Shown here piece after piece: positions 55,040 through 58,426 of a stretch of DNA of 64,000 nt (positions within the stretch are counted from its first letter, which is position 1; each line of letters begins with the position of its first letter). The notes under the pieces are model-generated. The model had not been told where the DNA came from. It searched no databases and saw only the letters and a program-made list of their open reading frames with translations. The position numbers and the translations under genes were made by a program. The stretch is from Candidatus Latescibacterota bacterium (lineage in GTDB: Bacteria > Latescibacterota > UBA2968 > GCA-2709665), in assembly GCA_965219995.1 (NCBI GenBank), contig CBDCOX010000002.1, forward strand, positions 3,648,001 through 3,712,000, given 5' to 3'.

Positions 55040-56038
55040 ATGTCTGGCAACAGGACATCAGCGGAGAATTCGAAAGAGACGCATGACGGTGGGGCGTCCG
55101 TCCGCGATATGACGGCGGCGCTTGATCGCGCCAAGGGGGCGCTGATCGGTCTCGCTTTGGGGGACGCGCTCGGCACGACGCTGGAATTTGCCGGCAGGGA
55201 TACAAGGCCGCAGGTTATCGAACTGGTGGGCGGGGGCCCGTTCGACCTGGCGCCGGGTGAGTGGACCGACGACACGAGCATGGCCCTCTGTCTCGCGGAA
55301 TCGCTTCTTGAACGGGGCCGGCTGGACGTTCACGATCTGATGAATCGGTTCCTCCGGTGGTATAAGGAGGGACATAACTCGGTCACCGGCATGTGTTTCG
55401 ACATCGGTGTGACCACGGAACGGGCGTTCCGGACTTTCAGCGAATCCGGGGAGCCGTTGAGCGGCAGCATCGATCCGCGCAGCGCCGGGAACGGATCTCT
55501 GATGCGGCTCTCGCCGGTGGCGATCCGATGGTGGCGCGACCGGGCGGAGGCGACGGCGGCCGCGCGTTTGCAGAGCCGCACCACGCACGGCGCCGCGCAG
55601 GCGGTGGAGGCGTGCGCGTTCTATGCCGAACTGCTGGTCGAGGCGATCGCAGGAGCGCCGAAGGAGACCGTCCTGCGCGCCAGAGAGTGGAGCGGCGACG
55701 CTCAGATCGCCGGGGTGGCCGCGGGGTCGTGGCGCGCAAAGGAACGCGACGCGATTTCCTCGTCCGGTTACGTATTGCACACGCTCGAAGCGGCCCTGTG
55801 GTGCGTCGATAGATCGGAATCCATTGAGAACGCCCTGATTCTGGCTGCCAATCTCGCCGATGACGCCGACACCGTGGCCGCCGTCACCGGTCAACTCGCC
55901 GGCGCGCTTTGGGGCATGTTGGGCGCTCCCGCCGGGTGGCTCGAGAAACTGGCGTGGCGCGGGCGCCTGGAAGCGCTCGCCACCGGCCTGTTCGAGACCG
56001 CCAACAGCGAGCGGGCCGACTGGAATGCCACCACCTAA
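55040..56038 (+). CDS. ADP-ribosylglycohydrolase (DraG/Tri1-like)
   Basis: GDALG, WTDDTSM, GNGSLMR, TTH, DADTVAAVTG; start uncertain (55040 or 55109). Confidence 0.93.
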   Translation: MSGNRTSAENSKETHDGGASVRDMTAALDRAKGALIGLALGDALGTTLEFAGRDTRPQVIELVGGGPFDLAPGEWTDDTSMALCLAESLLERGRLDVHDLMNRFLRWYKEGHNSVTGMCFDIGVTTERAFRTFSESGEPLSGSIDPRSAGNGSLMRLSPVAIRWWRDRAEATAAARLQSRTTHGAAQAVEACAFYAELLVEAIAGAPKETVLRAREWSGDAQIAGVAAGSWRAKERDAISSSGYVLHTLEAALWCVDRSESIENALILAANLADDADTVAAVTGQLAGALWGMLGAPAGWLEKLAWRGRLEALATGLFETANSERADWNATT

Positions 56039-56874
56039 CCCGTTAGACTTCCGTACCCCAGTCCCACGGCTTTTTTCACCGCCTCCAGCGTCCGCTGGCC
56101 CTCGATCCTCGCTTCCGACCCCCCCAGATGCAGGACGTCTCCGACCCGAGTTCGCGTACCTTCCAGCTGCGCCGCTGCGATCCGAAACGGCTCCTGCTCG
56201 GCATCCTTCCGCGCCGCCTGCGCCTCCCCATTTTTCGTCGTCCCAACCTGCTCTTCGGCATCCGCAAACCCAACCGCAATTGAGTCACCCACGCGCATTC
56301 CGGTATTTCCGCAGGGACCATTCATCCTTACGCTCTGCTGGTACCCGGGCAGAGGAAAGACGGTCCCGAATTTGCGATTGAATCGACGCGCTACTTCCCG
56401 GCACAGATTCGAGCGCATCCGCTGACCGGGGCCTGCAGCAACAATCGAAGGCCGGAATAGCAGCACGTCCGCCGGCTGAAATACCGTAGAACCGGCAGAC
56501 CCGAGTTCTGGCGACCGCCTCGCTGCATCCCGCTCCCGTTTCGCCTCCGGACCGTCCATCGGGGCGGGCAGCGTAATTGCATGATCGAGAATCATCGCCA
56601 ACTCCCCGAGTTGCGGAACCTGCGACTGCAGAAAGCAGACGCTTCGCTCCGGATCGAACCCGGAGGCCAGAAGATTCGTGACAAGCTTGCGAATGTTGAG
56701 TTCGATCCCGCGTGGATGTTCCCGATCCCTGCGCAATGCATCGAAGTCGGCGATCATGAAAAAACACCTTGCATCCGCCTGCCGGTCAAGCAGGTGTTTC
56801 AGGAACCCGATCAAGTGTCCCAGGTTCATTCGTTCCGTTGGCCGGACACCGGCCAGGACAATCGGACGTTTCAT
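56035..56874 (-). CDS. Degenerate tryptophanyl-tRNA synthetase-like protein (pseudoenzyme or decaying paralogue)
   Basis: GVRPT-x-MNLGH, FMIAD, GFDPERS, FLQS, ARRFN..FG..FPLP and the C-terminal helix are retained; no KMSKS; AGGGAG SD; no internal stops. Confidence 0.82.
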   Translation of the reverse strand: MKRPIVLAGVRPTERMNLGHLIGFLKHLLDRQADARCFFMIADFDALRRDREHPRGIELNIRKLVTNLLASGFDPERSVCFLQSQVPQLGELAMILDHAITLPAPMDGPEAKRERDAARRSPELGSAGSTVFQPADVLLFRPSIVAAGPGQRMRSNLCREVARRFNRKFGTVFPLPGYQQSVRMNGPCGNTGMRVGDSIAVGFADAEEQVGTTKNGEAQAARKDAEQEPFRIAAAQLEGTRTRVGDVLHLGGSEARIEGQRTLEAVKKAVGLGYGSLTG

Positions 56875-56961
56875 TCTGAATACTCCCTATTTTCAAATGT
56901 CTCTTATTTGAACGACGGACCGGCGCCCGGGCGCCGCGTTGGGATGTGCGTTTAGCCATAC

Positions 56962-56998
56962 AAGAAAAGCCGCGATCCACCTTCAGGTGAACCGCGGC
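56962..56998 (-). terminator. Intrinsic terminator/attenuator between trpS and the paralogue
   Basis: GCCGCGGTTCACC-TGAA-GGTGGATCGCGGC (13 bp, two G-U pairs) followed by TTTTCTT. Confidence 0.85.
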
Positions 56999-57120
56999 CA
57001 TCGCCACTCCTTCACGCACGGATCATCCGGTGGCGGACGCACGGCTCCCGTTGCCCCGAGCCACCAGCGGTGAAGGGAAATCGCCGCGTTACCAGACAGA
57101 ATGCCCGAATGTTGTGTCAT
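56983..57120 (-). CDS. Putative second Trp-rich leader peptide (45 aa)
   Basis: MTQHSGILSGNAAISLHRWWLGATGAVRPPPDDPCVKEWRWPRFT; starts 8 nt after the trpS stop, with GAGG SD overlapping that stop; its own stop lies in the terminator loop. Confidence 0.62.
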   Translation of the reverse strand: MTQHSGILSGNAAISLHRWWLGATGAVRPPPDDPCVKEWRWPRFT

Positions 57121-57128
57121 GGATAGCC

Positions 57129-58205
57129 TCACGATCCCGAGTCCCTCTGTTCGTCCCTGCGCATCCGGTCCCGGGCTTTCCGGGAGATCCGGTTCCAGAC
57201 GCCCGTGAGCCCCATCGCCTTCTTCATTGCCTTCAGCGTTTCATCGGCCACGACCTGGACGCGCTGCGTGCCTTCGTACAACACCTTTTCCACGTACCCG
57301 GAATCCGCTTCGTATCGCGCCCGGCGCTCACGGATTGGGTCCAGAAAACTGTTCAGCGCCCGGGTCAGCTTGTCCTTCACCTCCACGTCGCCGACCGTCC
57401 CGGCGCGGTACCGTGTCTTCAGATTCTCCACCTCATCCCGATCCGGGTTGAACGCGTCGTGGTAGATAAAGACCGGATTCCCTTCCACCTTGCCGGGGAT
57501 ATCCGCACGCACGCGGTTGGGATCGGTAAACATCCCGCGCACCTTCTTCTTCACCGTCTGCGCATCGTCAGACAGAAAGATCGCATTGTCCAGGCTCTTG
57601 CTCATCTTCGCCTGGCCGTCCGTACCCACCAGAACCGGGACCTCGCCGATCAGGGCGTCCGGAATGGGGAAGACCTCCCCGTAATAGCTGTTGAACCGCC
57701 GGGCGATCTCCCGGGTCACCTCGACGTGCGCCAGGTTGTCTTTTCCCACGGGAACCAGGTGCGCCCTTGGAGTCAATATGTCCGCCGCCTGCAGAATAGG
57801 ATATCCGACGAGTCCGAACGGGATCGCCTCTTCGTCCAGCCTGGCGGCGCGCGCCATATCCTTGATGCTGGGCAGCCGGGCGACTCTCGGCAGCGTCACC
57901 AGCATCTCGAAGAAGAGATCCATCTCGTAGACGGCGTGGATGGCCGACTGCAGATAAATGGTCGATCTGGACGGATCGATGCCCACGGCCAGGTAATCCA
58001 GCAGCATCTCCCGCACGTTCTCCCGAAGGGCATGGATGTGTTCCTTCTGCGGCCGGGTGGTGAGCATATGCAGGTCCGCCACGAGAAAATAACATTCGTA
58101 TTCGTCCTGCAGCCGGACCCGGTTTTTCAAGGAGCCCACGTAATGCCCCAGGTGCATCCGCCCCGTGGGACGGTCTCCCGTCAGAATCCGTTTCCGATTG
58201 TTCAT
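57129..58205 (-). CDS. trpS: Tryptophan--tRNA ligase
   Basis: [40 protein letters not shown] at 58205 after GGAGG. Confidence 0.97.
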
Positions 58206-58218
58206 CGCGTTTTCCTCC

Positions 58219-58251
58219 AAAACAAAAATCCCCGCCGTGGACCGGCAGGGA
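58219..58251 (-). terminator. Attenuator terminator upstream of trpS
   Basis: TCCCTGCCG-GTCCA-CGGCGGGGA followed by TTTTTGTTTT, just before the trpS SD. Confidence 0.85.
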
Positions 58252-58280
58252 CGTTGACTTATCCAGATTGAATCTCAAGT

Positions 58281-58358
58281 TCAGCACGCAGTCAGCCGGC
58301 CGGTACGATTGAAGTCGTGCCACCACCAGCATCCGCTATGTATTCCGCGCGCCGTCAT
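58281..58358 (-). CDS. Trp attenuation leader peptide (25 aa)
   Basis: MTARGIHSGCWWWHDFNRTGRLTAC, three consecutive TGG codons, SD AAGGAAGAGG. Confidence 0.88.
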   Translation of the reverse strand: MTARGIHSGCWWWHDFNRTGRLTAC

Positions 58359-58397
58359 CGCCTCTTCCTTTCAAACCGAACAGTGAATGACCGGTCA

Positions 58398-58426
58398 ACG
58401 ATATCGAATTCCGGATGCCCTGTCAA
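58398..58426 (-). promoter_or_regulatory. Sigma70-type promoter of the trpS leader
   Basis: Minus strand TTGACA-17 nt-TATCGT, 40 bp upstream of the leader ATG. Confidence 0.78.

Follow-up and report, generated by a model that had tools for sequence, protein, structure and literature searches.

Putative tandem tryptophan-codon attenuators before a truncated TrpRS paralogue at the trpS locus of Candidatus Latescibacterota

Why would a bacterium keep what looks like a broken tryptophanyl-tRNA synthetase (TrpRS) gene behind two leader regions rich in tryptophan (Trp) codons, with its housekeeping synthetase gene trpS between them? This layout is found in the window analysed here, a stretch of 64,000 nucleotides (nt) from a Candidatus Latescibacterota bacterium (contig CBDCOX010000002.1, positions 3,648,001 to 3,712,000), whose minus strand carries a first leader (leader 1), trpS, a second leader (leader B) and the TrpRS-like paralogue, termed P2. 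Our answer is that two ribosome-mediated transcription attenuators, both based on Trp codons, probably act in series on one transcript and so gate P2. The most interesting item of the locus is this conserved, repeatedly truncated and doubly gated paralogue.

The two leader units of the trpS locus

The order of elements given in the initial annotation was recovered in full, each element being present at its minus-strand position: promoter, leader with three Trp codons (WWW), terminator, trpS, leader with two Trp codons (WW), terminator and TrpRS-like open reading frame (ORF). The features of the unit are as follows.

58398..58426, minus strand: promoter-like site, sigma-70-like, TTGACA-17-TATCGT, 10/12 matches in the promoter scan
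58281..58358, minus strand: leader 1 ORF, 25 codons (25 amino acids, aa), with Trp codons 11-13 at 58328..58320 (WWW) and a stop that precedes the terminator
58218..58252, minus strand: leader 1 terminator from the terminator scan, a hairpin of 10 base pairs (bp) at 58252..58228 followed by a U-tract
57129..58205, minus strand: trpS, 358 aa, HLGH and KMSKS motifs present (PF00579, 1.5e-77; TIGR00233, 313.4 bits against a cut-off of 176.75)
56983..57120, minus strand: leader B ORF read from frame and motifs, 45 codons, ATG at 57120, WW codons 19-20 at 57066..57061, three proline codons (PPP) 29-31 at 57036..57028
57029..57047, minus strand: 5' strand of the leader B antiterminator from constrained folds, its 3' half (57038..57029) being the alternative partner of the Trp codons
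56989..57007, minus strand: 3' strand of the leader B antiterminator from constrained folds ('WRW' codons and terminator 5' arm)
56985..56983, minus strand: leader B stop codon from the ORF reading, inside the terminator loop
56958..56999, minus strand: leader B terminator from the terminator scan, a 14-bp hairpin (56999..56968) followed by a U-tract
56035..56874, minus strand: P2, TrpRS-like paralogue, 279 aa (PF00579, 1e-18, residues 3-175 only; TIGR00233, 107.7 bits)

The ATG of leader B lies 8 nt past the trpS stop, so that its translation may be coupled to that of trpS, and the WRW codons are found near the end of its ORF. A GAGG or GGAG precedes each leader start codon, the start codons are conserved, and the promoter hexamers are found at equal distance in same-genus relatives. 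The promoter scan detected no promoter-like site on the minus strand between 58398 and 56035, so that P2 shows no sign of a promoter of its own between the gates, which would have taken it out of the series arrangement proposed in the initial annotation. A genome search found trpS to be the only full-length TrpRS gene, and nothing else TrpRS-like besides trpS and P2.

Taken alone, the sequence of the region is not striking. Terminator-like sites number 4 against 3.0 expected from shuffles, which is not significant by itself, and a scan of 55500-59000 against Rfam (E <= 10) gave six matches with E values of 1.4-9.5, all far below gathering scores and none of them a Trp leader or a T-box. Evidence for more than chance comes from a script for an in-frame TGGTGG in a short ORF, with a perfect hairpin and U-tract at most 190 nt downstream, which found nine places on both strands of the 5.4 Mb genome; two are leaders 1 and B, and the remainder are two tRNA genes and five unconserved-looking places. 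As the other single-sequence statistics are unremarkable, the weight of the case rests on conservation in relatives.

Leader 1 was counted in the genomes of the window's family in which the region upstream of trpS was read, G019 excluded, and at least two Trp codons within three codons are present in all fifteen (WWW in six, WWR in four, WRW in two and WW in three). The peptides end in a similar short motif and a stop followed by the terminator (15/15), and the terminator is itself conserved in all fifteen, with pairs maintained through two-sided changes. Besides the terminator, the consensus contains a 1:2 helix, in which the Trp codons pair with the CCGGCCGGC segment, and a small hairpin whose pairing is preserved via C-G to U-A changes. 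In constrained folds with a ribosome on the Trp codons, the CCGGCCGGC segment pairs with the terminator 5' arm and forms an antiterminator; with the ribosome on the stop codon this pairing is absent.

Two members of the same family differ at this locus. In G019 (L044) the trpS promoter is fused directly to the leader 1 terminator and the leader ORF is deleted, either a real deletion or an assembly fault of a fragmented metagenome-assembled genome (MAG). G016 (L094) carries a divergent TrpRS (410-aa open frame, 33% identity to that of the window) which groups with the outgroup, and has neither leader 1 nor P2.

For leader B the comparison was extended beyond the family. Two peptide patterns specific to P2, run against 185,579 species represented by one genome each, gave 32 P2 loci, and in all 33 including the window P2 is preceded by TGGTGG, a CC-rich complement and a terminator; in 30 of the 33 this complement encodes PPP. 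In the alignment of the 33 sequences, paired cells make up 99.1% for the terminator, four of whose ten pairs change on both sides, and 81.9% for the helix containing the Trp codons. The true register is paired in 87.7% of cells, against 35-53% when slid by one to three columns, a control that overstates the support since the sequences share ancestry and the same alignment supplied the structure. A covariance model of leader B gave 35 matches at E <= 1e-10 across 151 genomes of the phylum, one per genome. The position relative to P2 was read in 28 of these 35 genomes: the match lies directly upstream of P2 in 26, and after a trpS without P2 in G012 and G014. Several matches at E values from 1e-5 to 6e-3, found in a third family, were rejected as terminator-like sites after unrelated genes.

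The ribosome-free minimum-energy fold of leader B has the Trp codons paired with the CCGCCACC segment and the terminator also formed. To model a stalled ribosome the Trp segment was masked and the transcript cut before the terminator 3' arm. Under these constraints, in the window's genus, 57047..57029 pairs with 57007..56989 (-27.8 kcal/mol, against -23.6 kcal/mol for the terminator); in the sister family the partner of the terminator 5' arm and loop is a CCGG...UGGCG stretch (-14.9 against -20.3 kcal/mol). Attenuator-type alternative pairings are thus present in both leaders, and the Trp clusters and terminators of both, those of leader B in 33 of 33 loci, are kept in relatives, as the check proposed with the initial annotation demanded. 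The idea that the WRW codons act as a second Trp sensor did not survive the same folds and alignment, since they are not conserved as codons; all that is widely kept in this region is a UGGCGA-like stretch, which forms the 3' strand of the antiterminator.

The sister family separates the two genes. Its housekeeping trpS, about 80% identical to that of the window, has no leader and follows an HNH-type gene, and its P2 is found at a separate locus behind a promoter-like site, a classical leader (leader A), the leader A terminator and then leader B. Leader A contains WW or WWW, a stop codon inside the antiterminator-forming segment and a terminator of its own. Both leader 1 and leader A have the classical stop-codon placement, in which a ribosome that does not stall covers segment 2 and leaves the terminator free. 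Outside the window's family 24 loci were compared: in 19 of them the ORF filter detected another WW leader ahead of leader B, and inspection added two (G040 and one with a W-x-W leader plus terminator), giving 21 of 24; leader B stands alone in the other three. The script for the leader A terminator missed 2 of 14, where the U-run lies in a loop or spacer, and both show the same hairpin by sequence. In the window's family leader 1 serves as the first gate, with trpS between the gates. As the sister trpS is leaderless and its P2 stands behind two leader-terminator units, the double gate belongs to P2, and from this comparison the two-step gate on the P2 family appears to be a selected design.

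Elements resembling leader B were also seen elsewhere. L118 (G109) and L114 (G075), from two other families of the phylum, are weak matches of the leader B model before trpE-like genes, each with a WW or WWW leader ORF and a terminator; their motif after the Trp codons is leader B-like, and they may share its origin. In L113 (G088), from the sister family, a leader B-like element (E 2e-6) is followed by a P2 frame of only 82 codons, a probable truncated remnant. In the window's own genome but outside the window, at G000:C2 ~2,970,000-2,970,330, a promoter-like site, an aromatic-rich short ORF (two Trp, several Tyr and one Phe codon) and a hairpin with U-tract precede a trpE-like gene (anthranilate synthase homologue, ~2,970,333-2,972,505); this element is likely a further attenuator of the same regulon.

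The paralogue P2

P2 does not pass the TIGR00233 equivalog model of TrpRS, its 107.7 bits covering profile positions 2-182 only and falling below the cut-off of 176.75; for comparison, a full-length form from the sister family scores 272.2 bits and a 248-aa short form 196.3. The class I signature motifs are lacking: HIGH reads NLGH in the window and is degenerate in the five other copies of the genus, and KMSKS is absent from P2 throughout the genus. The helical anticodon-binding domain is missing as well (about 65-85 residues), with two C-terminal helices left. What is kept is the TrpRS-type Rossmann half, the KMSKS loop and most of the anticodon-binding domain being replaced by a disordered linker. 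The nearest solved relative is the TrpRS 6ncr (3e-26). An AlphaFold2 model (mean predicted local distance difference test score, pLDDT, 69; predicted template modelling score, pTM, 0.70) contains the Rossmann half and, at the C-terminus, two long helices; residues 106-129 and 182-224 are disordered in it. All of the top structural matches listed are TrpRS entries or a TrpRS-derived design, at a query-normalised template modelling (TM) score of about 0.65-0.74.

In a quick tree P2 and the housekeeping TrpRS form two sister clades against eight other TrpRS (97-100 in the Shimodaira-Hasegawa-like approximate likelihood ratio test, SH-aLRT). This quick search does not separate short and long forms within the sister genus, and the count of independent deletions rests on differing deletion boundaries instead of the tree. 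Eight species of the sister genus have a P2 of 330-332 aa with HLGH and KMGKS, and the one full-length form scanned (G040) passes the trpS equivalog cut-off. Other species of that genus have a P2 of 245 or 248 aa, from which the KMSKS loop and the greater part of the anticodon-binding domain have been removed cleanly and in frame. The same module is gone, at different boundaries and with a degenerate HIGH, from the P2 of the window's family (232-308 aa) and of G038.

The initial annotation had taken the paralogue for a degenerate pseudo-TrpRS, and this description has to be abandoned. P2 belongs to a conserved family of second TrpRS, its ORF is intact in all loci, and the ratio of non-synonymous to synonymous substitutions (dN/dS) is that of a gene under purifying selection. 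In the window's genus dN/dS is 0.28-0.46 for P2 against 0.05-0.09 for trpS; in the sister family the medians for P2 are 0.13 in short and 0.117 in full-length forms. Calculated by parts, dN/dS is 0.25-0.48 for the N part and 0.11-0.29 for the C part, with 95% bootstrap intervals that exclude 1 for both in all five pairs tested, and about 1 for the linker in the two closest pairs. Within the family as a whole, few parts are as well conserved as the 50 residues at the C-terminus. By these comparisons the P2 family has lost the KMSKS loop and the anticodon-binding domain several times and is yet under purifying selection; as relatives keep the same design, P2 would be a regulated gene and not a decaying one.

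In the family alignment Q133 and A135 are invariant and D136 is found in at least 90% of sequences; the helix which is kept carries what we take to be the Asp that reads the indole ring of tryptophan. Four of the six copies in the genus, that of the window included, have another residue in place of the Asp of a GxDQ-like motif. We think that the P2 of the window's genus may bind tryptophan or an analogue without charging tRNA, and most likely the protein would act, in the wider sense, as a Trp-binding or TrpRS-binding protein rather than as a synthetase.

A predicted pairing of P2 with the housekeeping TrpRS gave a score of 0.52, against 0.00 for the best of three controls, which is weak support: 58 of 80 solved complexes attain the mark, as do 2 of 110 mismatched pairs, and scores of 0.60 or below comprise only 7 of the 80 solved complexes and both passing mismatches. 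The runs agree in at least 63% of contacts, with a partner pLDDT of at least 61. The pass may reflect likeness only, as TrpRS homodimers have been solved. A more specific role can be imagined, which we regard as doubtful: P2 would be a pseudo-synthetase made only at severe failure of Trp-tRNA charging, retaining the Trp pocket and dimer face without the ATP and anticodon modules, and would pair with the housekeeping TrpRS or soak up tryptophan analogues. The tRNA binds across the TrpRS dimer, so that a heterodimer of P2 and TrpRS could not charge it. If such pairing took place, P2 would be a starvation-triggered brake or modulator of charging. In this view, the fact that the module was shed more than once, independently, in a gene that selection still constrains would imply that the double Trp gate arose to regulate a role other than charging.

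P2 is rare, with, by our reading, about 26 member-like clusters among 5.8 billion proteins, and the few clusters with a named source are called 'hypothetical protein', 'tryptophan--tRNA ligase' or 'tryptophanyl-tRNA synthetase'. The records of P2 loci are MAGs of uncultured Candidatus Latescibacterota, a few being labelled Gemmatimonadota or 'bacterium' by their submitters. Most sequencing runs containing this stretch come from metagenomes of sponges, corals or marine samples. Sponges are said to be rich in tryptophan analogues, and with hosts living there a link of P2 to inhibitor stress is conceivable.

Two neighbouring genes are apparently not part of the unit.

54983-56038, plus strand: ADP-ribosylglycohydrolase gene, convergent with P2
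58777-59769, minus strand: hemB (ALAD), upstream of the promoter

The spacer between hemB and the promoter (58480-58610) contains short direct repeats, a 'cgttttctcg'-like unit and 'tccatgt/tcatcc' words; words of this type are also found near 59800-59900, in genome G010 and near the trpE leader.

Series attenuation and its alternatives

In the mechanism we propose leader 1 would be a textbook attenuator, through which a shortage of charged tRNA-Trp raises transcription of trpS. Transcripts that pass leader 1 and trpS would reach leader B, perhaps translated by coupling to trpS. A ribosome stalled on the Trp codons of leader B would free the segment containing CCGCCACC, which together with neighbouring bases would pair with the terminator 5' arm and let the polymerase enter P2; with no stall the Trp codons would pair with this segment, or a moving ribosome would cover it, and the terminator would form. 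P2 would be made only with both gates open. As the two gates answer to one signal, read-through should multiply, with a low basal level and a steep response, and the trigger would be a lack of Trp-tRNA through starvation or an inhibitor of TrpRS. In evolutionary terms P2 would be derived from a second, attenuator-controlled TrpRS of Latescibacterota that lost its ATP and anticodon modules in the window's genus. Anatomy, conservation, covariation, alternative pairings and selection on P2 are observed at the loci compared; the direction of the response, co-transcription and the role of P2 we infer.

Several findings weigh against this scheme. The folding energies of the single sequence are not unusual (z -1.17 and -1.63), and a promoter of a type outside the scope of the scan could lie inside trpS. 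In the sister family the terminator is more stable than the leader B antiterminator, the two families do not share the same antiterminator pairings, and the minimum-energy structure still contains the terminator in 7 of 9 full-length folds with the Trp segment masked. In no locus read does the leader B frame stop before the terminator, so that the classical stop-codon placement is absent from leader B throughout; the stop lies in the loop here and elsewhere inside, abutting or beyond the stem, sometimes at the start of P2. A ribosome running on through leader B would thus melt the terminator, a response of the opposite polarity. P2 is also dispensable in the window's genus (present in 6 and absent from 9 of 15 genomes), and remnants of leader B follow a trpS without P2 in G012 and G014, where it is whole, and in G013, where half is left. 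In sequencing run X8, DNA contigs join 56009/56018 to 57105/57119, skipping P2 and leader B (about 1,100 bases, with 32-35 other letters in between), and so join trpS to the ADP-ribosylglycohydrolase gene; strains with and without P2 therefore exist in nature. The only RNA run, the metatranscriptome X20, contributes contigs of a relative, possibly of DNA origin. These contigs, 85-95% alike, cover 56992-57355, 57387-57677 and 58270-58433; one ends in the leader B terminator and another spans leader 1 up to its terminator. Since they come from a relative (about 90% alike) and DNA may be present in the library, one contig extending to 42 nt upstream of the predicted start, they allow no conclusion on transcript ends, and the uncovered parts prove nothing.

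Some of these points would be expected under other explanations. As in every species the leader B frame extends into the terminator or past it, the second gate might work with the opposite polarity, by pyrBI-type attenuation, a coupling in which a ribosome keeping pace blocks the terminator. P2 would then be on when Trp-tRNA is plentiful, and a stall at the Trp codons or at PPP, polyproline runs being known slow spots for ribosomes, would uncouple ribosome and polymerase and cause termination; starvation would shut off P2 while leader 1 raises trpS. The stop positions just described (several at or near the P2 start codon), the persistence of the terminator in most masked folds and PPP in 30 of 33 loci all fit this view, which we nevertheless consider unlikely. 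The 3' strand of the helix with the Trp codons can alternatively pair with the 5' arm of the terminator, a three-way design for which simple coupling has no use, and beyond the antiterminator the frame changes register between species, hence no selection on the peptide there. For these two reasons the classical polarity of leader B is rated likelier. PPP, moreover, is the in-frame complement of WWW and may be kept for pairing alone. The constancy of this stretch could also mean that the leader B peptide, with its Trp codons, Gly-x-Val and PPP-Asp, is a nascent arrest peptide, sensing free tryptophan or an analogue within the ribosome tunnel as TnaC does, instead of charged tRNA-Trp. In the interval from the Trp run to PPP a Val codon is preserved via synonymous changes (GUG, GUA, GUC), and the distance separating the two motifs hardly varies. 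We regard this as very improbable, since the same bases lie in or beside the helix, so that RNA pairing can explain most of the conservation, and consecutive Trp codons are the hallmark of sensors of tRNA charging.

The patchy presence of P2 raises a different doubt, that in the window's genus the second unit is a relic: the hairpin 56999..56968 would serve mainly as the trpS terminator, P2 would be on its way out, and the function would be ancestral, maybe still exerted in the sister family. The nine genomes lacking P2, the leader B copies left directly after trpS and the X8 contigs are what such a loss would leave, and P2 further has a dN/dS 4-6 times that of trpS, a HIGH degenerate in all six copies and a nearly neutral linker in the two closest pairs. 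Yet the frame is open in all six copies, each of which also has a Shine-Dalgarno-like GGGAG ahead of the ATG, the two Trp codons and the terminator, and the bootstrap intervals of the N and C parts and the conserved C-terminal 50 residues speak for a protein under constraint, so that we find this quite unlikely. Two attenuators in series thus remain our preferred reading, and the double gate of the initial annotation is partly supported: its logic is largely right, borne out by conserved leaders, terminators and alternative pairings and by the two units before the sister-family P2, and it was wrong in three details, namely WRW, the pseudogene status and the precedent discussed below.

Relation to known attenuators and synthetase paralogues

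With this locus, leader-peptide attenuation of a tRNA synthetase gene is now seen in an uncultured candidate phylum, in a bacterium associated with sponges. The locus would be a natural example of two attenuators for the same signal in series, from which a sharp switch with little leak is expected. P2, doubly gated, repeatedly shorn of the ATP loop and anticodon domain and still selected, points to a job other than charging for a synthetase-like protein. In the open-access literature we found no truncated TrpRS paralogue with a non-charging role, and nothing relevant on Latescibacteria together with tRNA synthetases.

The closest parallel is found in Streptomyces. Vecchione and Sello reportedly described in 2010 an attenuated auxiliary, antibiotic-resistant TrpRS. 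In the part available to us of a separate article, Trp-leader attenuators are predicted upstream of trpS/trpS2 (trpRS1), and as here a short ORF with Trp codons and a terminator stand before the TrpRS gene (PMC1262725). P2 may be likened to the second, auxiliary and indolmycin-resistant TrpRS of Streptomyces, which according to the portions of the literature available (PMC1262725, PMC9437257) is switched on when Trp-tRNA charging fails. Our system differs in its phylum, Latescibacterota, in its two attenuators in series, with the housekeeping trpS between the gates in the window's genus, and in a gated gene that lacks the catalytic signature motifs in many species.

For the serial arrangement the Salmonella mgtCBR leader is comparable. 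As described in the accessible part of the source, it contains the tandem leader-peptide attenuators mgtM and mgtP, two short translated ORFs and switchable stem-loops which control downstream transcription in series (PMC3641672). According to the same part, one of the mgtCBR units answers to ATP and the other to Pro-tRNA, their effects add up, and both stand before a single operon (PMC3641672), whereas both leaders here contain Trp codons, a multiplicative gate for one signal is expected, and a whole gene lies between the units. With E. coli trpL the leaders share Trp codons in segment 1, mutually exclusive 1:2, 2:3 and 3:4 pairings and a terminator with U-tract, and in leader 1 and leader A also a stop codon in or next to segment 2. 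Unlike in trpL, leader B has no stop before the terminator and its segment 2 is in-frame polyproline, and the leaders have no sequence or Rfam match to it.

Duplicated aminoacyl-tRNA synthetases that hetero-oligomerise and truncated ones are likewise known, and the ThrRS T1/T2 of Anabaena and the GluRS-like YadB are described in the sections available of two articles (PMC4787780, PMC9437257). P2 resembles such non-canonical paralogues, as far as these sections present them, in being either a stress-induced duplicate or a truncated form without the anticodon-binding domain in a new role (PMC4787780, PMC9437257), and differs from them in lacking KMSKS and, in the window's genus, HIGH. The table of synthetase paralogues in the available part of the 2022 review has no TrpRS-like protein outside aminoacylation (PMC9437257). 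The initial annotation had considered the layout undescribed. On the sections of the two articles available, this does not hold for its components, as Trp-leader attenuators of trpS (PMC1262725) and tandem attenuators (PMC3641672) are both known; it holds for their combination at the present locus, which is a new variation on these systems.

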